Source: Patescibacteria group bacterium (GTDB lineage: Bacteria > Patescibacteriota > Minisyncoccia > 2-02-FULL-40-12 > GWA2-44-9). Taken from it: a stretch of DNA of 64,000 bases. The notes under the pieces are model-generated. The model searched no databases. It saw only the letters and a list, made by a program, of their open reading frames with translations, and was not told the DNA's origin. Numbering within the stretch: the first letter of the stretch is position 1; the number at the start of each line of letters is the position of its first letter. Location of the stretch: contig JBBTQV010000016.1 in assembly GCA_038065515.1 (NCBI GenBank), positions 5,462 through 69,461 of the forward strand, given 5' to 3'. A program made the translations under genes and the position numbers. Shown piece by piece: positions 10,357 through 41,191 of the stretch.

Positions 10357-11040
10357 TTAGATGATATATTTTCCGTTCTCCACCTGGTCGCGGACAATCT
10401 TCCCCTTCTCCATCGTCACAACTCTGCGGCTTAGGGAATCGACAATCTCGCGGTTGTGCGTGACCAGCACGACCGTCGTACCCAGTTCGTTGATTTTCTG
10501 CAGCAATTGTATCACATCGTGACTGTTCACTAGGTCGAGGTTGCCGGTAGGTTCATCGGCCAGAATGATGCGCGGACGGTGAATGAGCGCGCGGGCGATG
10601 GCCAGGCGTTGTTTCTCGCCGCCGGAGAGCTGGTGCGGAAAATTAGCAGCCTTGTCCGCCAGTCCGACGATTTCCAACGCCTTTGGAACATCTTCTTTAA
10701 TACGGCTGGTCGGAGCCCCCACGACTTCCAGTGCGAATGAGACATTTTCAAACGCGTTCTTTGCCGTCAGAAGCTTGAAATCCTGAAAAATAGTGCCGAT
10801 TTTCCGACGCAGAAGCGGAATGTCATCGTTGGACAGCGCGGCGAGATTGACTCCGTCGATGAGCACCTCTCCCGATGTCGGTTTCTGCTCGCGGGTCAGC
10901 ACGCGTAACAGCGTGCTCTTACCGGCGCCTGCCGGTCCCACGATGGAAACAAACTCCCCTTTTTCAATATGCAAATCAATTTCGTGCAAAGCTACGAAAT
11001 GGTCATCGTATACGCTGGAAATTTGTTTGAGCTCTATCAT
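10357..11040 (-). CDS. ftsE: cell-division ATP-binding protein FtsE
   Basis: Walker [10 protein letters not shown], signature LSGGEKQR, Walker [12 protein letters not shown]. Confidence 0.9.
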
Positions 11041-11765
11041 GAAAGAATGAATTTCGAAAGGTCGCCTTCGAGCACTTTCTCGGGCTGGGATGATTTCACG
11101 CCGGTGCGGTGATCTTTCACCATCTGGTACGGATGTAGCACATAACTGCGGATCTGACTCCCCCAGTCCACTGACCCTGATTTCAGTTCCGGTTTGAGCT
11201 GGCTCAACTCGGATACTTTTGACTGCTCCATGAGCACCGCCAACCGTGAGGTCAGAAGTGTCAACGCCTTTTCTTTGTTCTGCGCCTGACTCCGTTCGGT
11301 CTGCCCGACGACGGTGAGCCCGGTCGGTTTATGACGGACACGAACCGCCGTTTCCACCTTGTTCACATTCTGACCGCCCTTGCCCCCGGAGCGAAAAGTC
11401 TCGTACTCCAGATCCTGGGGATTCAACGCGAAATCCTTCGCAAGAACAATCGGCATGATCTGCACCAGCGCAAACGATGTATGCCGGAGTCCTTTTGCGG
11501 AGAACGGACTCATACGCACGAGCCGGTGCACGCCACCCTCCCCCTTCAGTGTATCATACACCGCCGGTCCGACCACTTCATACGATGCACTCTTGATGCC
11601 TTTCTGTTCCCCGAGCGATTCGTCGAGCATCGTGAATTTCCAACCGCGGGAAGCGGCGTACCGCTGATACATGCGCGCCAACATGGACGCCCAATCCTGG
11701 GCATCCACCCCCCCGGCTCCCGCGAACACGGAGAGCACGGCCTTATTTGGTTCATAGGTAAACAC
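11037..11765 (-). CDS. prfB: peptide chain release factor 2, lacking N-terminal domain 1
   Basis: SPF tripeptide (RMSPFSAK), GGQ motif ([10 protein letters not shown]), [11 protein letters not shown]. Alignment to RF2 begins near E. coli residue ~115. GTG start. Only ~50 bp separate it from the upstream gene. No CTT-TGA-C frameshift site. Confidence 0.8.
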
Positions 11766-33168: not shown

Positions 33169-34164
33169 TCATGCTTCATCGTAATACCCAAGTACTTTGA
33201 GCCCTGGTAGCTGTGTGCCCGCAAGAAATGCGAGCATCGCTCCCCCGCCGGTGGAAACAAATGTAAACTTCTCCAGCAGTCCGAGAACATCAACCGCAGA
33301 AATGGTATCACCGCCCCCGATAATCGACAATGCGCCGCTTGCGGCGATGGCACGGGCGATCGCTTCGGTTCCGGCCATGAATCGCGCATCCTCAAAACGC
33401 CCCATGGGCCCGTTCCAAATAATGAGCTTCGCTCCTTCCGCGAGCACCGTAAATGCCCGCGTCGTCTCGGGCCCGATGTCCCGTGCGTGGCCATCGTCCA
33501 TGATAAAATCCGTCGGCAAGTGCAGTCGTGAGTCTTGCGTATTGATATTTGTCATCCCTGCGAGAATCTCATTGGCAGCCACACCGCCGACGGCAACATG
33601 CTCTGCTCGTACGATAAGATGTTCGATGACCGGTATCTTCGTGCTCGCCTTGGCACCGCCGATGTAGACTACTTTCCCCTGCGCGGGTGCATTAATGGCT
33701 TTCACAAGCTGTCGGGTTTCTTCCTGTATCAGCAAGCCGGCATACGCGGGCAAGAGTTTTGCCGCCGCAACAACCGATGCATGCTCGCGATGGCACACCG
33801 CGAACGCACTATTTACATAGAGGTCGCATCCCGCGACCAGCTCGCGTGCAAACGATTCGTCGTTGGTTTCTTCTCCGGGATGCTGGCGCGTGTTCTCCAA
33901 CAGCACTACCTCATCCCCGAATGTAACGCCAAGCAATTGCTCCAATTGCGGTTTGAGCGGTTCAAAACTTGGCACCGCGGAGATGTGTGCCGCCAACACT
34001 ACATGCGCGCCGCGCGAAAGCAGATAGTCCAGCGTTGGCTTCTGCCGCACGATGCGATAGCGTTCGGCAATCGTGCCATCAGTATTCACAGGTACATCAA
34101 AATCCGCGCGCAGAAATACTTTCTTGCCGCGTATATTCCCTGCTTGGTCGAGTGTACGCATCAT
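33169..34164 (-). CDS. pgk: phosphoglycerate kinase (compact, 331 aa)
   Basis: VFLRADFDVP, LENTRQHPGEE, IIGGGDT, STGGGA. ATG overlaps the RT1 stop (ATGA). Confidence 0.9.
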   Translation of the reverse strand: MMRTLDQAGNIRGKKVFLRADFDVPVNTDGTIAERYRIVRQKPTLDYLLSRGAHVVLAAHISAVPSFEPLKPQLEQLLGVTFGDEVVLLENTRQHPGEETNDESFARELVAGCDLYVNSAFAVCHREHASVVAAAKLLPAYAGLLIQEETRQLVKAINAPAQGKVVYIGGAKASTKIPVIEHLIVRAEHVAVGGVAANEILAGMTNINTQDSRLHLPTDFIMDDGHARDIGPETTRAFTVLAEGAKLIIWNGPMGRFEDARFMAGTEAIARAIAASGALSIIGGGDTISAVDVLGLLEKFTFVSTGGGAMLAFLAGTQLPGLKVLGYYDEA

Positions 34165-35150
34165 ATGCTCTCTCGAATATTATAGGTATTTCCGTGTCCC
34201 AACAACCCCCGATATGACTGCCTTGTTGCTTCTACCGGACATTCCCGCAACCGTCTGAACATCCGGCGCTTTGTATTCATCCGCAGTACTCGGTGATCCG
34301 GGAAGTGCGCCCAGCCCAGGAAGTCGATGCCGGAAGCTAGAGTGCGGAGAGAAACCTTGTGTGGATGCAAATCGAGATGAAGTTTTTCCTGCAGAAAGTC
34401 GCCGATACGAGACAGGAGTTCCTGCAAATAAGACTTGTCGCCGTGCAGAATTGCAAAGTCGTCCGCGTAGCGGATGTAGTGTTTCACTTTGAGCGCGTGT
34501 TTCACCCACTGATCAAACTCGTTCATATAGATATTCACCATGAGCTGTGATGTCAGGTTGCCGAGAGGGAGGCCCGGGAAGAAGCTGGAAATAATGCGGG
34601 ACAGAAGCCAGAGGGTATCGGAGTCAGGAATGTGTTTAGCTATGATGTCGTTCAGAATGTCGTGGTCTATACTGGCAAAAAACTTGCGGATGTCGCACTG
34701 TAGCACCCAGCAGGTGCGGGTATGATTCTGGGAGACCCGGTACCCAAAGGCGCGAAACCGGTTTAGTGCACGATGCGTGCCTTTGCCCAGCTGACAGGAG
34801 AAGGAGTCGGCAATGAATTTCCTGCTGAAATAGTGACACAGCACCCGATGCACGGCGTGGTGCAGAAGGCGGTCCCGCACACTTGCTTTGTGGATACTCC
34901 GTGGCTTTGGGTCAGAAATGTTAAATGCTTCGTATGGTGAGTGGTGATATGTTTTTGCAATCAGATCGTTATGGAGCATAACAACATTATCCATTAGGTT
35001 GTGCTCAAAATCCTGCACATCTCTACGGGCCCGCTTGCCGCCCAAAAACTCCTTCCATGCTCCAAGGAGATTTTCCAAAGAAATGATATGCTGAAAGCCC
35101 TCATCAAGCTGAATATGACTCATTCGCCCAATAATACCCCCCCGGCTCAT
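34161..35150 (-). CDS. diversity-generating retroelement reverse transcriptase (DGR-1 RT)
   Basis: RT motifs: LPLGNLTSQLMVNIYMNEFD (DGR-specific SQ in motif 4) and YIRYADDFAIL (motif 5/C). A TR/VR pair is adjacent. True start may be the internal Met at 35123 (MSHIQLDEGF). Confidence 0.85.
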   Translation of the reverse strand: MSRGGIIGRMSHIQLDEGFQHIISLENLLGAWKEFLGGKRARRDVQDFEHNLMDNVVMLHNDLIAKTYHHSPYEAFNISDPKPRSIHKASVRDRLLHHAVHRVLCHYFSRKFIADSFSCQLGKGTHRALNRFRAFGYRVSQNHTRTCWVLQCDIRKFFASIDHDILNDIIAKHIPDSDTLWLLSRIISSFFPGLPLGNLTSQLMVNIYMNEFDQWVKHALKVKHYIRYADDFAILHGDKSYLQELLSRIGDFLQEKLHLDLHPHKVSLRTLASGIDFLGWAHFPDHRVLRMNTKRRMFRRLRECPVEATRQSYRGLLGHGNTYNIRESI

Positions 35151-35508
35151 TCCACTACTCCAAAGCGCAAAAAGCGCTTACGGACTTTGGTATAGCTATC
35201 TTCAGACACTCCCGAAAACCCATCGGCACTCCCTGGGCGTGAGGGTTGATGCGTTATTTATTGAAATCATTGAGACACTCGCAGTCGCGAGTTTTCTGGT
35301 GCGTGAAGAAAAAATCCCTTATGTGCGTATTGCTATCAGAAAAACGGATACCCTCAAAATACTACTGATGGTGCTCTGGGAAACAAAATCACTCGACGAT
35401 AAAAAGTACATCGCACTATCGCTCAAGATAGACGAGATTGGCAGGATGCTTGGCGGATGGAGCGGTCAACTTCAAAAACAAAACTCCCCCACGAAGGGAG
35501 AGAAATGA
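35115..35508 (+). CDS. avd: Avd-like four-helix-bundle protein (DGR-1 accessory variability determinant), N-terminal segment out of frame at a C7 tract
   Basis: ORF-track GTG 35239..35508. The same frame upstream (from 35119) encodes ...AYGLWYSYLQTLPKTHRHSLG, matching the Avd/IVS N-terminal helix, but has no start. ATG 35115 is in the -1-adjacent frame and is joined by deleting one C from the C7 run at 35137-35143. Opposite strand to the RT. Confidence 0.6.
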
Positions 35509-35515
35509 AGAGAGT

Positions 35516-35647
35516 TGCGCGGGGCCAAGAACACCCACCGATTGTCAGGGTACCAGGCATTGTCGGGCTTACCGTAGTTGCTGTTCAACCACCGGTCACT
35601 GCTGTCGTGTTCGACATTGAACACCTTCAGGTAGTCGTCCGAGTCCG
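35516..35647 (-). repeat. DGR-1 template repeat (TR1)
   Basis: 132 bp, near-identical to the target1 3' end. Differs at 14 positions, every one an adenine in TR (coding/minus strand). Lies inside the spurious ORF 35472..35768. Confidence 0.85.
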
Positions 35648-35883
35648 TGTATAAAGGATGCCGTCTATGCCACTGTCCCTCGAATGCTCTTGGGACTGTA
35701 TCGTATTCGGCATCATTAATGCCATAACATCCTTTACCAAGTATCTTCATTTTTTGAAGTTTCTGCATATGTCCTCCATCTCAAACCGTAATCGGAGATG
35801 TTCTCAACATACGGATACTGGATTCGGCAGCGGGAAACCGTAATCTCCCACATATTCGCCTAATACCAAAGTGAGTATACCAG

Positions 35884-35925
35884 AATAAAGAAAGTGGCCG
35901 TACACGCTTTCGCATGCACGGCCAC
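35884..35925 (-). terminator. rho-independent terminator after DGR-1 target gene
   Basis: gtggccgt...acggccac 8-bp stem followed (minus strand) by TTTCTTTATT. Confidence 0.5.
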
Positions 35926-35988
35926 CAGACGGGGCCGAAGGACTAAGGTTCAGAGGTCAGACAGACCAAAGAAACTAAGTGCCGAGGA

Positions 35989-36603
35989 CTAAGTCGTGCG
36001 CGGGGCCAAGAACACCCACCGACCGGCAGGGTACCAGGCATGGCCGGGCTCACCGTAGTAGCTGTACAACCACCGGCCACTGCCGACGTGTTCGACACTG
36101 AACACCTTCAGGTAGCCGCCCGAGTCCGCGAGGGGCTCCATGGCAATCAGGAGCCATTCTCCGGGGGGTTGATCAGGGTACTGCAGACGAAGCTGCGGAC
36201 CGACCTCGGCGGGACAGAGCCGGAGTCCCAACTCCAGAGCACGGGCGTAGATGGTATCGCGGCGAGCGGCCTGGGTGAAGCCCAGATCAGTGCCGGAGAC
36301 GATAACGAGATCGAGCTTGGTCTTCTTGGGGCTCATGCTGTTCTTGGCCAGGATCCGACCGGCGTAGTCGCTGATGCGGAAGCCCGCGGATACCAGCGAT
36401 GCGCGGAGCCCGTCCACGGTCTTGAAGGTACCAAGTGTGATGGTCTTCCAGACCGGGAACTGGGGCCAGGGGTCCTCCTTGCGGAGGAACCGCTTGAAGG
36501 CGGCGAACCACTGGGGACCTTCGGGTCCGGCGAGTTTCTCAAAAAATGCCTTGAACGGTCCGGCCGTCTCGGCCAGAGCGCTTGCGTCGAGCATGATGGA
36601 CAT
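35989..36603 (-). CDS. DGR-1 target protein (204 aa, no signal peptide) with C-terminal variable region
   Basis: C-terminus ...YLKVFSVEHVGSGRWLYSYYGEPGHAWYPAGRWVFLAPR is the VR counterpart of TR1 (N/D/K in TR become Y/G/H/E/A/V here). Confidence 0.75.
   Translation of the reverse strand: MSIMLDASALAETAGPFKAFFEKLAGPEGPQWFAAFKRFLRKEDPWPQFPVWKTITLGTFKTVDGLRASLVSAGFRISDYAGRILAKNSMSPKKTKLDLVIVSGTDLGFTQAARRDTIYARALELGLRLCPAEVGPQLRLQYPDQPPGEWLLIAMEPLADSGGYLKVFSVEHVGSGRWLYSYYGEPGHAWYPAGRWVFLAPRTT
35997..36128 (-). repeat. DGR-1 variable repeat (VR1) at 3' end of target gene
   Basis: Aligned base-by-base to TR1. All 14 mismatches correspond to TR adenines. GC-rich IMH-like end (GGCCCCGCGCA) shared with TR. 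Confidence 0.85.
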
Positions 36604-36672
36604 GGTCGACTCCTTTCAGAAAACGAGGAAAGTGGTTTTTAACGAGCGCAGGGACTGATGTCACCCTGTATT

Positions 36673-37530
36673 TTAATTACACTCCTGTCTTCCTGATTTG
36701 TCAATCCCCTGTATCTCATCTTCTGCAATCTCGCTTGCAATGGTGAGAATCCGCGCAAAATCTTCAGCGCGGACGGACGCCCCGCCGACGAGAACGCCGG
36801 AAATTTCGGAGCGTTGCAAAAACTCATGCGCATTGGCAGGCGTCACCGAACCGCCATAGAGAAAGGCGATGTGCGACACATCGAAATGATCGGCTAACGC
36901 TTCGCGGATGAGACTCATCGACTGCACGGCGCTGGCGGGCGTGTCGGGTTTGGCATCAGGGTTGGTGCTAATGGCCCACACCGGCTCGTACGCTATGATG
37001 CACTGCCCTACCTGTCCGGGCGTCAATCCGCGGAATGTCGCGGCGACCTGCGCTTTGAGCGCATCCTGCCAATCGCCCTCGCGAGCTTGCCCGCCGAAGC
37101 CTTGGCGTAGGCGGGTGCGCTCACCGACGCACACAATAGGCACCAATCCGTTGCGGAGCGCCGCCCGCAGTTTTTCGTTGACCATTTCGTCATCTTCATT
37201 GAGCTTGTAGCGCCGGTCACTGTGCCCAACAATCACATACCGCACGCCGAGTTTTGCCAGTTGCGGACCGCTCACCTCGCCCGTCTGTGCGACATCATCA
37301 CGCGCCGCAATATCCTGCGCACCCAACCGCGCTACATCGGCAAGCACGCCTTCGCCCAACATTGCGGCGACATCTTCCAGAAAAACAAACGGCGGACAGA
37401 ACACAATATCCAGCTGTTGCGCCCCTGCGCCCAGTCCGCGGACATGTTCGTCAATTTTCGCGACAATATCCTGCGCCTCGGCAAGAGTCTTCGGATTCAT
37501 CTTCCAATTCGCGATGATTAACTTTTTCAT
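36673..37530 (-). CDS. tpiA: triosephosphate isomerase
   Basis: IANWKMN, GHSDRR, IAYEPVWAIST, GGSV. ATG overlaps the RT2 stop (ATGA). Confidence 0.9.
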   Translation of the reverse strand: MKKLIIANWKMNPKTLAEAQDIVAKIDEHVRGLGAGAQQLDIVFCPPFVFLEDVAAMLGEGVLADVARLGAQDIAARDDVAQTGEVSGPQLAKLGVRYVIVGHSDRRYKLNEDDEMVNEKLRAALRNGLVPIVCVGERTRLRQGFGGQAREGDWQDALKAQVAATFRGLTPGQVGQCIIAYEPVWAISTNPDAKPDTPASAVQSMSLIREALADHFDVSHIAFLYGGSVTPANAHEFLQRSEISGVLVGGASVRAEDFARILTIASEIAEDEIQGIDKSGRQECN

Positions 37531-38561
37531 GTGGAATAGAGCCACGCAACATTGCGCAATTCCTGTTCTATCTTATACGCATTCCCGTGGCCGAGCAATC
37601 CGAGATAGGACTGGAGCGTAGTCTGGACTGGCCTCTTTACGATGTTACGGAACGCTCGTCGTTTCGTTACTGTTCGCAGAACTTTGTGGGTTGGAAAATA
37701 GGACCATCCAAGAAAGTCGACACCGGATGCCAATGTCTTGAGCGCAATCTTCCGAGGATGCAAGTGCAACAACAAATAGCATTGCAGGAAGTCGCTTACG
37801 CATGGAACGAGCGAGACCAGAAAAACTCTGTTGGGATGCAGTATGACAAAATCATCTGCGTAGCGGATATAGTGAGGCAAACCCATCCGGTTCTTCATGA
37901 AGCAATCCAGCTCATTCATATAGATATTGGCCAGTAGTTGCGATGTCAGATTACCCAACGGCAAACCCCTACCAGGGCTTGCATGGAAACTGCTGATGAC
38001 TTCTTGAAGAAGCCTCATAACCAAAGCATCTGAAATCGTCCGCGCAAGAATGGCCGATAGTCTGACATGGTCGATGCTGGCAAAGAATTTTCGGATGTCA
38101 CACTTCAACACCCAGCAGGTCCGAGTATTGTTTTCGCTTGTCTTGTTGATGAAAGAACGGAATCGCGCTCCGGCTGCATGAATCCCCTTGTCTACCCGAC
38201 AAGAAAATGAATCGGAAATGAATAGATGGTCAAAGATTGGATATAACACTCGATGGATTGCGTGATGGAGCAAACGGTCGCGAACTGTTGCCTTATGGAT
38301 ATGGCGCGGCTTGGGATCGCAAATATGAAAGCTGTGATACGGACCATGCCGATACGCTCCATTGGCAAGCTCGTCGTGCAGGTATAGGATGTTGTCCATC
38401 AGTTCCCGCTCGAATTCTTGGACATCAACCTTGTCCCGCTTGCCAGACACGAACTCTTGCCATGCGAGCAGAAGATTTTCCAGAGAAATTATTTCCTCAA
38501 ACATACAAAAACCTATATGACCCCCCCCCCAACAAGACTTACCGATACTGCAAAAGGCCAC
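37527..38561 (-). CDS. diversity-generating retroelement reverse transcriptase (DGR-2 RT), paralogue of RT1
   Basis: LPLGNLTSQLLANIYMNELD and YIRYADDFVIL. Roughly 60% identical to RT1 by eye. True start probably MFEEIISLE at 38504. Confidence 0.85.
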   Translation of the reverse strand: MAFCSIGKSCWGGGHIGFCMFEEIISLENLLLAWQEFVSGKRDKVDVQEFERELMDNILYLHDELANGAYRHGPYHSFHICDPKPRHIHKATVRDRLLHHAIHRVLYPIFDHLFISDSFSCRVDKGIHAAGARFRSFINKTSENNTRTCWVLKCDIRKFFASIDHVRLSAILARTISDALVMRLLQEVISSFHASPGRGLPLGNLTSQLLANIYMNELDCFMKNRMGLPHYIRYADDFVILHPNRVFLVSLVPCVSDFLQCYLLLHLHPRKIALKTLASGVDFLGWSYFPTHKVLRTVTKRRAFRNIVKRPVQTTLQSYLGLLGHGNAYKIEQELRNVAWLYST

Positions 38562-38874
38562 CGCCGCATACCTGCTCTGGCATGAGTGTCTTCCCCGTTT
38601 ACCGCGATTGACTCGGTTTACCCTCGGCTCAAAAATAGATCGACTCTATCTCGAGACTATCGAATACATGCTCATCGCCGGATATACCGCCCGCGAACGA
38701 AAGCTCGTTATCGTTCAACAAGCAAGCGCCAAACTCGATACGCTCAAGTTTTTCTTGAAAATCGCCTGGCAGGCAAAAGCGCTGTCTCCAAAAAAGTATG
38801 CGGAGCTGTCAGCGCCAGTCGCCGAGATTGGTAAGATGCTCGGCGGCTGGCATAAACAGTTGACCAGCGAATAG
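38517..38874 (+). CDS. avd: Avd-like four-helix-bundle protein (DGR-2), N-terminus out of frame at a C10 tract
   Basis: ORF-track TTG 38608..38874. Same frame upstream from 38521 encodes PPPQQDLPILQKATAAYLLWHECLPRLPRL, homologous to the Avd1 N-terminal region. ATG 38517 is joined if the C10 run (38521-38530) were C9. Confidence 0.6.
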
Positions 38875-39001
38875 ACTTGCGGACTGCGGCGAAACGGTAG
38901 TTCTCGTTCCACTCGTTGTCGAACCAGTTCAGGTTCAGGTTGCGTTCATGGTCGTTCCGGTTCAGATACGCCACATTGCGGTTGTCATTGACCTTGGCCA
39001 C
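38875..39001 (-). repeat. DGR-2 template repeat (TR2)
   Basis: 127 bp matching the target2 3' end with 12 differences, all at TR adenines. Lies inside the spurious ORF 38744..39004. Begins 1 nt after the Avd2 stop. Confidence 0.85.
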
Positions 39002-39236
39002 CATGTGCAGAGTGCCATCCGTATCACTGTCCTTTAGCTATCTTCGGGACTGTATTTTATCCGGAGCCTGTGCTCACCAGCACCCTGCACCAAGTATATT
39101 CATTGGAAGAGAATTGCGATGGCACACTGACGACGAACATGTTCGCAGTCATTCTGTCCGGTCGCCAATTCTAGAATTCGGCCGCCCGAAGCCGTAGCCG
39201 CGGACCGCATCGCCTACTATCCACAGACAGTATACA

Positions 39237-39278
39237 CAAAAAAGAAACCGCCGTGCGAGCACGATGCTCGCACGGCGG
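39237..39278 (-). terminator. rho-independent terminator after DGR-2 target gene
   Basis: 13-bp perfect stem ccgccgtgcgagc/gctcgcacggcgg with 5-nt loop, then T-run on minus strand. Confidence 0.55.
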
Positions 39279-39284
39279 AAGGAA

Positions 39285-39305
39285 CCAAGGCTCCCAGCAC
39301 CTTGG
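39285..39305 (-). promoter_or_regulatory. hairpin immediately 3' of VR2 (candidate DGR target-recognition/IMH-associated stem-loop)
   Basis: ccaagg-ctcccagca-ccttgg. Located about 30 nt past the VR2 end. DGR VRs are typically followed by such a hairpin. Confidence 0.4.
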
Positions 39306-39335
39306 CCAGTGCCAAGAGCCCCAGGTTCCCAGTGC

Positions 39336-39980
39336 TTACTTGCGGACTGCGGCGAAACGGTAGTTCTCGAACCACTCGCTGTCGAACCAGTACAGGTTCA
39401 GGTAGCGTACACGGTCGTACCGGTCCAGATACGCCACATAGCGGTCGTCATGGACCTTGGCCACGGTGCCCAGCGCAACGATGGGAAACTCCAACTGGAG
39501 ACCCGAGTGTTGGATGCCGATCCAGAGCAACTCCAAGAAGGTGGCCGGACGCAGACCTTGGCGGTCCATGTCAGCGATGACCTCGTCCGAGGTCATCCGC
39601 TTGTTGTAGTGGAGCAGATGGACTTCGGCGGTACGGGTGCCGTCTCCGGTACCGAAACTGAAATGCTTGACGATGTTGGAGTTGACCCAGTCGTACTTGC
39701 CGTCGGCGATGAGCTGGACCGTTGTCTTGGTCAGATCCATCATCACGGAGATGGTGCGGTCGAGGAACTCGATGGCGGTACGCTTGGTACCGACGATGAG
39801 TTGGGCAATTTTGCCGCGCAAGTCCTTGCTCGTGAGGATTCGCTCCAGGTCGGCGTCGTTGCCACCCAGCGCGAGCACCGCATCCACGAGGGCCTTGAAC
39901 ACCTCGAACGCCTTACCCCAACCCTTGAGAAACTCACTCTTCTGACGAGCCATAGCTCGCCTCCTTCGTTTGTGGCTCAT
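39336..39980 (-). CDS. DGR-2 target protein (214 aa, no signal peptide) with C-terminal variable region
   Basis: C-terminus VAKVHDDRYVAYLDRYDRVRYLNLYWFDSEWFENYRFAAVRK versus TR-encoded VAKVNDNRNVAYLNRNDHERNLNLNWFDNEWNENYRFAAVRK. Confidence 0.75.
   Translation of the reverse strand: MSHKRRRRAMARQKSEFLKGWGKAFEVFKALVDAVLALGGNDADLERILTSKDLRGKIAQLIVGTKRTAIEFLDRTISVMMDLTKTTVQLIADGKYDWVNSNIVKHFSFGTGDGTRTAEVHLLHYNKRMTSDEVIADMDRQGLRPATFLELLWIGIQHSGLQLEFPIVALGTVAKVHDDRYVAYLDRYDRVRYLNLYWFDSEWFENYRFAAVRK
39338..39464 (-). repeat. DGR-2 variable repeat (VR2)
   Basis: All 12 mismatches to TR2 are at TR adenine positions. Ends at the target stop codon. Confidence 0.85.
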
Positions 39981-40168
39981 TCCCTACCCACGCAGAATAC
40001 GGGGCCCGGAACTTGCCGTTTTCAATGTTCGCAGGGCTTCACCCCTGTATTTTTGTATTATATCAAATCTCAACGATAATAGCAAGGACTCGCTCGGACC
40101 GCCGAATATGGTGATCCGAGCGAAGCGATGGCGGCACAAGGCAAAACCGTACCTACCGTCGCGAAGCG

Positions 40169-41191
40169 CTATACCTTCGTTTCGCGAAGATGCCTAGCAC
40201 AGTCGTCGGGATCGAACGGGTTGATATAGATGGCGGTTGAGAGCTCAAAGCCCGCGGCTATCGGGATGCGCGGTACGACCTCGATGTGCCAGTGATAAAA
40301 ATCGTAATTGATGAGCGGGTCACGCATGACCGGTGCGGTATGGATATAAAAGTTGTAATCGACATCGTCCAGCGCGGCGTACAACTTACGCAAAACCACA
40401 TTCAACATATTGGCGCATTGCGAAAGCGTGGCGTCATCGGACAACTCGAACCGCGGCATCTGCCGTTTAGGGAAAATACGCACTTCGTATCCGCCTTTGG
40501 AGACAAACGGACAGAACGCGATGAACTGTTCGTTCTCATACACAATGCGTTTGTTTTCGCGCAGCTCCCAGTCAATCATTGCCTGATGCACCGGAACCCC
40601 ATGCTGCTGCATGTAGTCATCGGAACCCTGCAGTGAACGGACAATTTCCGGTGGCACAATGGGAGTAGAAATAATCTGCGAGTGATTATGCAAAATACTG
40701 GCACCTGCCGCGCGTCCGTGATTGTGGAATATGCTGATGTAGTCGCCGCACTCATCCTGTGAGATTTCAGTGTATCGGCCCCGGTATACTTGCAGGACCT
40801 CCCGTGTCTGCTCATCGGTGAACTGCGCGAAGTGCGCGTCGTGGTCGCGCGTGATGACCAATTCATGAAAACCGTTCGCCGCATGCGTCAGATACGGTCC
40901 TGCCTGTCGGGGCTCTCCGCATATCCCATGCTGTAACGCGGGAAATTTATTCGGTACCACCACGGTCGTCCACGGACCATTCCAGTCACCATGCCAAGTG
41001 ATGGGTTTGCCGTTGTCATAGACATGCACCGGCGTTTCCTGTGCGCCCATCTGTTCAGGCTCAAAGACGCACTCCTCTTTCGATTGCATAAGGCGTTCGC
41101 GCTTCCCGTCATGCGGCCTCCGGGCACGCAAACTCGAAATAAGGACCCACTCGCCTGAAACCAAATCTTTTCTGAATTCGTTGACTGCCAT
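40169..41191 (-). CDS. galT: galactose-1-phosphate uridylyltransferase family (GalT-like HIT transferase)
   Basis: IFHNHGRAAGASILHNHSQI (H-x-H-x-Q active site). Zn-binding Cys/His N-terminal region. Confidence 0.75.
   Translation of the reverse strand: MAVNEFRKDLVSGEWVLISSLRARRPHDGKRERLMQSKEECVFEPEQMGAQETPVHVYDNGKPITWHGDWNGPWTTVVVPNKFPALQHGICGEPRQAGPYLTHAANGFHELVITRDHDAHFAQFTDEQTREVLQVYRGRYTEISQDECGDYISIFHNHGRAAGASILHNHSQIISTPIVPPEIVRSLQGSDDYMQQHGVPVHQAMIDWELRENKRIVYENEQFIAFCPFVSKGGYEVRIFPKRQMPRFELSDDATLSQCANMLNVVLRKLYAALDDVDYNFYIHTAPVMRDPLINYDFYHWHIEVVPRIPIAAGFELSTAIYINPFDPDDCARHLRETKV

Follow-up and report, generated by a model that had tools for sequence, protein, structure and literature searches.

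Why should both copies of an accessory gene in one bacterial genome be broken at the same place, by a run of C residues just past the start codon? The question is raised by a stretch of 64,000 nucleotides from a Patescibacteria group bacterium (contig JBBTQV010000016.1; hereafter the window), the minus strand of which carries two diversity-generating retroelement (DGR) cassettes. In each cassette the gene avd, encoding the accessory protein Avd, lies between the template repeat (TR) and the gene for the reverse transcriptase (RT). From comparison with related loci we consider it probable, at about 0.7, that the C tract is a slipped-strand contingency switch acting on Avd and hence on mutagenesis by the cassette. 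Slipped-strand phase variation of Avd, one of several explanations offered in an earlier reading of the window (the original prediction), is the best supported of these: a repeat occurs at this position in 118 of 128 loci, and near-identical contigs differ in tract length.

Both avd genes of the window are out of frame at a C tract

The avd genes and the tracts, the latter located by a tract scan, have the following positions.

35115..35508, plus strand: avd1; ATG at 35115, a 7-codon leader, C7, the four-helix-bundle body in the +1 register, stop at 35506-35508
35137..35143, plus strand: poly-C run of avd1 (C7), proposed as a slippage switch; one C above an in-frame length (ON+1 state)
38517..38874, plus strand: avd2; ATG at 38517, an ACC codon that supplies the first two C's of the C10, the body in the +1 register, stop at 38872-38874
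38521..38530, plus strand: poly-C run of avd2 (C10), likewise proposed as a slippage switch; ON+1 state

In profile searches the two plus-strand open reading frames (ORFs) matched the bAvd family PF22296 if the in-frame segment upstream of the annotated start was added (Avd1, E 9e-10 and 39.4 bits, just below the 40-bit cutoff; Avd2, E 3e-16 and 60.4 bits). Both genes are convergent with their target gene and TR and divergent from the RT gene. The avd frame is open from just past TGA 35116-35118 in avd1 and TGA 38518-38520 in avd2, and the upstream segment encodes helix 1 of the protein (..SAKSAYGLW.. in avd1, ..ATAAYLLW.. in avd2); between the upstream stop and GTG 35239 (avd1) or TTG 38608 (avd2) no in-frame ATG, GTG or TTG was found. 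ATG 35115 and ATG 38517, both in the -1 register, open frames that end after 26 and 22 codons, respectively. Both genes are thus OFF as assembled. Loss of one C restores an Avd of 130 aa in avd1 (C6) and of 118 aa in avd2 (C9), and C9 in avd1 would give a protein of 131 aa. The tract sets in 22 nt after the ATG for C7 and 4 nt after it for C10. The original prediction had placed avd on the opposite strand and out of frame at C7 and C10, with the only upstream ATG in another frame and fixed by removal of one C; ORFs, tracts and one-C restoration were all reproduced for both copies, which are off in the same way, both being ON+1.

That the avd1 ATG stands beside the RT1 start, as had also been proposed, was borne out: ATGACTCAT (35115-35123) contains the avd1 ATG together with the complement of the RT1 ATG, and the two start regions overlap by 9 bp. 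The avd and RT ATGs of many relatives (L010, L013, L056 and others) overlap divergently by 21 bp in a quasi-palindromic, dual-coding motif, ATGAxxCAATTGAATTTTCAT, read as M-S/T-Q-L-N-F-H for Avd and as M-K-I-Q-L-x-H for RT. The motif is kept at the nucleotide level across RTs that are only about 60% identical, and may in addition act as a shared site of regulation. A scan for sigma-70-like promoters around both avd starts of the window gave none above shuffled expectation.

The repeat is present in most related loci and sets the frame

A genome collection was scanned with RT2, yielding 80 Patescibacteria loci out of 533 relatives, all fetched through the RT alone. Metagenome contigs were scanned with the 21-bp start motif, which is silent on the tract, and gave 120 loci, about 60 of which are avd loci. 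The frame of the avd body was fixed with an Avd hidden Markov model, and the combined non-redundant census comprised 128 loci. The repeats at the 5' spot of avd were poly-C in 111 loci (C6-C13, mode C9/C10) and dinucleotides (CT, GA, CA) in 7. The frame states were distributed as follows.

Repeat present (n=118): in frame 25 (21%), +1 register 57 (48%), +2 register 36 (31%)
No repeat (n=10): in frame 10, +1 register 0, +2 register 0

The two groups differed strongly in frame state (Fisher p = 8e-7). Since all ten repeat-less loci are in frame and repeat-bearing loci mostly are not, we concluded that the upstream ATG is the true start. In these predicted reading frames, the repeat is what puts avd out of frame. 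Within 609 kb of related loci, 62 of the 68 C or G runs of at least 8 nt lie at the avd 5' end just before helix 1, and at least three of the other six lie where the locus begins, just upstream of the RT gene, the place at which a truncated avd would be. The closest Avd2 relative has (CA)n at the tract position. The occurrence of several repeat types at one position indicates that it is the instability of the repeat that is selected, rather than a Pro-Pro-Pro peptide or a G-run motif.

Two other candidates were rejected. Stalling at Pro-Pro-Pro as the selected feature was discarded because synonymous Pro codons are almost unused (only in L026) and dinucleotide repeats substitute for the tract. 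Some relatives, though neither window copy, have TTG as the codon for the conserved helix 1 Leu, which is thus not a conserved start. A single substitution within the tract was also seen: L096 and L175 are 99.9% identical over 880 nt, the sole change being a C-to-A that replaces the leading base of the tract (TC7 versus AC6), which shortens the repeat and leaves the frame unchanged.

The sub-clade concerned is large, with more than 2100 protein-cluster matches to Avd1 at E <=1e-25. As a negative control we inspected 79 less closely related avd loci from viral contigs; a repeat at the 5' end was present in only 2 of them. Both of these are CPR-like (candidate phyla radiation) loci of the B3 architecture, in which avd is encoded on the strand opposite to the RT, and their RTs are 50-59% identical to RT2. 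Twelve other B3-type loci on viral contigs had no repeat and, by inspection, an ATG close before helix 1, and no repeat was found at the avd 5' end of 61 viral-contig loci with the RT on the same strand. The rarity of the repeat among these control loci indicates that the tract marks a sub-clade, not DGRs or B3 loci at large.

Tract length varies among near-identical contigs

Comparison with orthologous DGRs, suggested together with the original prediction, showed that tract length varies, down to contigs that differ by one C. Four ON/OFF pairs were confirmed at the DNA level, in contigs that come from separate or replicate samples.

L306 (C9, ON) and L307 (C10, OFF): 1294 nt aligned, differing by the one C only
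L308 (C10, ON) and L309 (C11, OFF): 800 + 394 nt, differing by the one C only
L311 (C9, ON; SRR31558127) and L312 (C10, OFF; SRR31558128): 840 nt, differing by the C and one substitution
L177 (C9, ON) and L167 (C10, OFF): 1170 nt, differing by the C and four substitutions

L308 and L309 belong to a single Hainich H43 0.1 um sample series, in which their assemblies bear the labels R2 and R1, and L311 and L312 come from consecutive SRA run numbers. The closest relative of the window's Avd1 is 84-87% identical to it and has the orthologous tract, ATGATTCATACGACCAATAATA-Cn-AGCTCATTCC in the relative corresponding to ATGACTCATTCGCCCAATAATA-C7-GGCTCATTCC (35137-35143) in the window. With identical flanks, the tract of this relative was C10 in 6 contigs and C8 in 1, and one scaffold was gapped exactly at the tract; from the protein P0111 (..NNTPPQLIP..) we infer an in-frame C9 (ON) allele as well. 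Among the proteins, P0217 (..PPPP..) and P0228 (..PPP..) form a comparable pair, and several pairs of full-length and truncated proteins are at least 96% identical.

In one further species set, L081-L090, more than 24 assemblies share an avd that is identical and in frame at C10, together with two different RT 5' regions (the RT being called as 333 or 291 aa), which suggests two strains or paralogous cassettes with a common avd.

Out-of-frame avd genes remain under purifying selection

In 137 of 144 cases the avd body runs uninterrupted up to the profile's end. Pairs of out-of-frame (OFF-OFF) copies had a pN/pS of 0.275, compared to 0.278 for ON-ON pairs, and the median dN/dS of OFF-OFF pairs was 0.11 where dS was unsaturated, as calculated with a custom Nei-Gojobori routine. 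By these measures of sequence constraint the out-of-frame copies are not pseudogenes and are under the same purifying selection as the in-frame copies.

When read from the tract onwards, Avd2 was modelled with AlphaFold (pLDDT, the predicted local distance difference test score, of 94.6) as four helices, spanning residues 8-26, 29-55, 58-84 and 90-116. In the model, residue 30 corresponds to the annotated TTG start, so that the 88 aa form would be devoid of helix 1, which carries the invariant residues Y17 and W20 and is open and conserved in all loci. A search of solved structures by sequence gave weak matches only, to bAvd (E 0.02). The sole database copy of the window organism's Avd, P0003, is the 88 aa form.

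A probable contingency switch on mutagenesis

G/C homopolymers of at least 7 nt are prone to slipped-strand mispairing. At the avd locus, such mispairing during replication would alter the number of C's. A length in register would yield a short leader, a Pro-Pro(-Pro) linker and a complete four-helix-bundle Avd, and with other lengths translation would meet a stop after about 22-26 codons, giving no Avd. In the DGR of the Bordetella phage, Avd is needed together with the RT for cDNA synthesis. By analogy, the RT of the window cassettes would make no cDNA if Avd is missing, so that the tract would, in a heritable and reversible manner, turn ON or OFF the adenine mutagenesis of the target that belongs to its cassette. 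The VR would be frozen until the tract slips back, and a population would consist mostly of locked cells with a diversifying minority. Slippage as the mechanism, its reversibility, the rate of switching and the dependence of this RT on Avd are all inferred in this scheme.

Both window cassettes are in the commonest OFF state, one C above ON, and as each has its own tract, their two targets could be switched independently. The VRs of the window differ from their TRs at 14-18 adenines, indicating that mutagenesis has operated even though avd is OFF now; past mutagenesis and a present OFF state together fit intermittent activity.

Several observations weigh against the switch. Every DNA-confirmed pair toggles between ON and ON+1, which may reflect decoding of the +1 state, and the registers of repeat-bearing loci are not uniform, the excess of +1 (48%) being significant (chi-square p = 0.001). 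The consensus length is constant in several same-species sets (P0050, C10 in six samples; P0091, C8 in three; L126 identical to L165), which indicates that switching of the majority allele is not rapid everywhere. A search of the metagenome contigs with the flanks specific to the window gave 0 hits, and the polymorphism is known from relatives and not from the window organism. An Illumina consensus at C10-C11 may be off by one in single assemblies, and C7, the tract of cassette 1, is at the lower limit of the lengths usually held to be phase-variable.

A more elaborate scheme is possible and, in our view, doubtful: a three-level, cassette-autonomous hypermutation rheostat that second-order selection maintains throughout a very large Patescibacteria DGR clade. 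An in-frame tract would give full mutagenesis and ON+1 would be a favoured, leaky resting state, with a trickle of Avd arising from +1 slippage of tRNA-Pro on CCC-C or from polymerase slippage; the other register would be tightly OFF. If this is true, a blind hypermutable repeat sets the dose of a programmed hypermutator.

Alternative explanations of the tract

The alternative that survives best, if still an unlikely one, is recoding, in which out-of-frame alleles yield a low, tuned amount of Avd because tRNA-Pro slips by +1 on CCC-C or because RNA polymerase slips on the C run. The +1 state would then be low rather than off, and this may coexist with variation at the DNA level. Such recoding would accord with +1 being the commonest register (57 of 118), with the ON+1 state of both window copies and of the out-of-frame member of every DNA-confirmed pair, with one species being at C10 (+1) in six of six samples, and with full purifying selection on the out-of-frame bodies; moreover, CCC-C is known to be prone to +1 shifts and long homopolymers to cause transcriptional slippage. 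However, the excess of +1 could also stem from the mutational dynamics of the tract, and with 31% of loci at +2 and 21% in frame there is no single conserved programmed shift. Dinucleotide repeats occur at the same site and length alleles exist at the DNA level. C6-C8 tracts are out of frame in 75% of cases, yet RNA polymerase slips inefficiently on them; in the window, C10 reaches the length of about 9 or more that is associated with transcriptional slippage, whereas C7 does not. By inspection, the window tracts are followed neither by a zero-frame stop (CCG GCT..; CCA ACA..) nor by an obvious stimulator. The programmed +1 ribosomal frameshift listed in the original prediction is not supported as an obligatory mechanism, all three registers occurring across homologous loci (21, 48 and 31%).

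A homopolymer error of sequencing or assembly, which had likewise been listed, would mean that the true tracts are C6 and C9 and that both avd genes are intact. C10 is long enough for occasional mistakes in a consensus, and the site is hard to assemble, with scaffold gaps (N-runs) at the tract in L001 (at about 3750), L045 and L316 and contig ends there in L034 (position 4) and L117, which would accord with heterogeneous reads or low coverage there. We nevertheless regard such an error as highly unlikely, since C7 is reliable in Illumina-type data and 79% of the 118 repeat-bearing loci are out of frame, including 15 of the 20 with tracts of C8 or shorter and 6 of the 7 with dinucleotide repeats. 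The same out-of-frame length also recurs in independent assemblies (C10 in six of six samples for P0050, C8 in three for P0091, and C10 six times in the Avd1 relative). The window has three C runs of at least 7 nt, two of them being the avd tracts, and no G run of this length; the third, a C7 at 11708-11714 in the codons of the AGAGG motif of an RF2-like gene, is in frame. The scaffold of L001 also contains a long irregular G-rich stretch adjoining the tract.

Even less probable is a role of the tract on the RT strand, where it forms a G-run 13-16 nt upstream of the RT start that would be ribosome-binding-like or structural, its effect on the avd frame being incidental. The tract is always 10-25 nt upstream of the RT start codon, and both G-runs and (AG)n, the complement of the CT repeats, are purine-rich and resemble a Shine-Dalgarno sequence. 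The spacing, however, is variable and too long for a Shine-Dalgarno sequence; GA or CA repeats (TC or TG on the RT strand) replace the tract in 5 census loci and in the closest Avd2 relative (CA); repeat-less loci and sister B3 loci without a tract exist; and the contrast between repeat-less loci, all of which are in frame, and repeat-bearing loci, most of which are not, would go unexplained.

The least likely possibility, that the short products (89 aa from GTG 35239, 88 aa from TTG 38608) or a non-canonical start past the tract are functional and the ATG irrelevant, can draw on the database annotation of the 88 aa form and on rare codons such as ATT, ATA and CTG in frame past the tract, but such products would lack the modelled helix 1 of the four-helix bundle with its invariant residues, all repeat-less loci join helix 1 in frame to a conserved ATG, and in neither window copy is the conserved Leu encoded by a start codon.

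Relation to known systems

Simple sequence repeat (SSR) contingency loci are known from Neisseria, Haemophilus, Campylobacter and Helicobacter (see, for example, PMC4965091, PMC5084427 and PMC3315296). In common with these, avd has a G/C homopolymer of at least 7 nt or a dinucleotide repeat just past the start codon, the length of which varies between or within strains and sets the frame, and OFF alleles keep the downstream ORF. Three of the features by which SSR loci are recognized were found: a repeat in the 5' coding region, polymorphism in repeat number (here in relatives), and a shift of frame in an otherwise intact ORF. In contrast to known SSR loci, avd does not encode a surface antigen, restriction-modification enzyme or glycosyltransferase but an accessory factor of RT-based mutagenesis, the hosts are uncultivated Patescibacteria, and the tract is conserved over a retroelement clade rather than belonging to the phasome of one species. 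We consider classical repeat-mediated phase variation, acting here on a DGR accessory gene across a large uncultivated clade, to be the most likely description suggested by these comparisons.

Phase-variable global switches are known from phasevarions, which depend on phase-variable methyltransferases, and from repeat-mediated mutL mutator switches. They share with avd a hypermutable repeat that toggles a gene altering many phenotypes or the mutation rate; the effect of avd would differ in being targeted hypermutation of a single VR, not genome-wide methylation or mutability. Known cases of recoding and of slippage at homopolymers include the prfB +1 frameshift, dnaX, transcriptional slippage in IS elements and rescue by poly(A) slippage in endosymbionts. 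As in these, a change of frame is needed near the 5' end and the +1 register is over-represented, but avd has no conserved register and no apparent conserved shift heptamer or stimulator, and dinucleotides can substitute for the homopolymer. The DGR of Bordetella phage BPP-1 (bAvd-bRT; PDB 4dwl, 8ub7) has the same protein families, adenine-specific transfer from TR to VR and a four-helix-bundle Avd, although similarity of the window Avd to bAvd at the sequence level is weak. Its avd is on the same strand and upstream of the TR (architecture B1), a class that had no repeat in our control set.

In the literature searched, no connection of avd or CPR DGRs to phase variation, contingency loci or homopolymers was found, a mention in Paul et al. 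2017 (Nat Microbiol) being possible; the avd tract seems to be unreported so far. For the restraint of DGRs in cells, published work indicates transcriptional regulation in Bacteroides (10.1101/2024.11.15.621889). If our interpretation is true, the avd repeat switch would be a different kind of restraint, stochastic, heritable and specific for each cassette, in the lineage with the densest DGRs, and would represent the first clear candidate family of phase-variable loci in Patescibacteria. The DGR activity inferred from metagenomes could then be predicted from the register of the tract. Most avd genes of the clade are mis-annotated, either as truncated 'four helix bundle' proteins or as proteins extended via fortuitous upstream starts.

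Architecture and layout of the two cassettes

According to Wu et al. 2018 (PMC5758913), the B3 architecture consists of TR-(avd)-RT, the avd gene being on the reverse strand, and is that of 90% of DGRs in the CPR set. The coordinates of the window correspond to this definition, with avd between TR and RT on the opposite strand, and the order of target/VR, TR, reverse-strand avd and RT is identical to that given for CPR B3 DGRs. In addition, avd is immediately upstream of and divergent from the RT gene in all 76 of the 76 related loci with upstream sequence. The description of an opposite-strand avd as atypical thus has to be abandoned for this lineage, whereas the notion that the spacer between TR and RT is antisense to avd holds, as it follows from the B3 architecture. 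The passages of Wu et al. 2018 reached by term searches mention no repeat tract, the paper contains neither 'start codon' nor 'truncated', and its sole 'frameshift' concerns TR-VR indels.

The remaining features of the cassettes are as follows.

34161..35123, minus strand: RT1, 320 aa from ATG 35123; PF00078, E 2.5e-21; start assigned by homology with related loci
35516..35647, minus strand: template repeat TR1, directly past the avd1 stop, on the opposite strand
35893..35926, minus strand: GC-rich hairpin of 15 pairs with T-run, just downstream of VR1
35989..36603, minus strand: target gene 1, 204 aa, no Pfam match
35997..36128, minus strand: variable repeat VR1, closing target gene 1 at its 3' end; differs from TR1 by 18 A-to-N changes
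37527..38504, minus strand: RT2, 325 aa from ATG 38504; PF00078, E 3.9e-20; divergent from avd2, 12 nt from its ATG
38875..39010, minus strand: TR2, from the TR/VR repeat comparison
39248..39278, minus strand: GC-rich hairpin of 14 pairs with T-run, downstream of VR2
39336..39980, minus strand: target gene 2, 214 aa, no Pfam match
39338..39473, minus strand: VR2, closing target gene 2 at its 3' end; differs from TR2 by 14 A-to-N changes

TR1 and VR1 are 89% identical over 132 nt, and TR2 and VR2 88% over 136 nt. The differences are mostly A-to-N on the coding strand (18 in cassette 1, 14 in cassette 2), and those at other bases are located in the padded ends of the compared stretches. With an RT beside a TR/VR pair, adenine-confined changes, and a VR that ends the target ORF and is accompanied by a GC-rich hairpin, both cassettes are DGRs. 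They are diverged paralogues: stretches of the RT genes are 73-82% identical at the DNA level, and Avd1 and Avd2 are 43% identical.

TR1 and TR2 lie inside ORF-like remnants (35472-35768, minus strand, 98 aa; 38744-39004, minus strand, 86 aa) that resemble the C-terminus of their own target, and a remnant of this kind around the TR is usual in DGRs. A terminator-like hairpin with T-run was also observed at 35484-35504 (minus strand), that is, on the strand of TR and RT, just after TR1 and within the 3' end of avd1. This hairpin might end a short TR RNA before an antisense run through avd, or might be a structure of the DGR RNA.

The cassettes are interleaved with genes of core carbon metabolism. 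The gene order at 33169-41191 is pgk, DGR1, tpiA, DGR2 and a galT-like gene, so that tpiA lies between the two cassettes and pgk and the galT-like gene are at the flanks. Elsewhere in the window, the RF2-like gene with the third C7 run (11037-11765, minus strand) encodes a protein of 242 aa with AGAGG, SPF and GGQ motifs and without the N-terminal domain; the gene upstream of it ends about 50 nt away, indicating that the missing domain is not encoded nearby.

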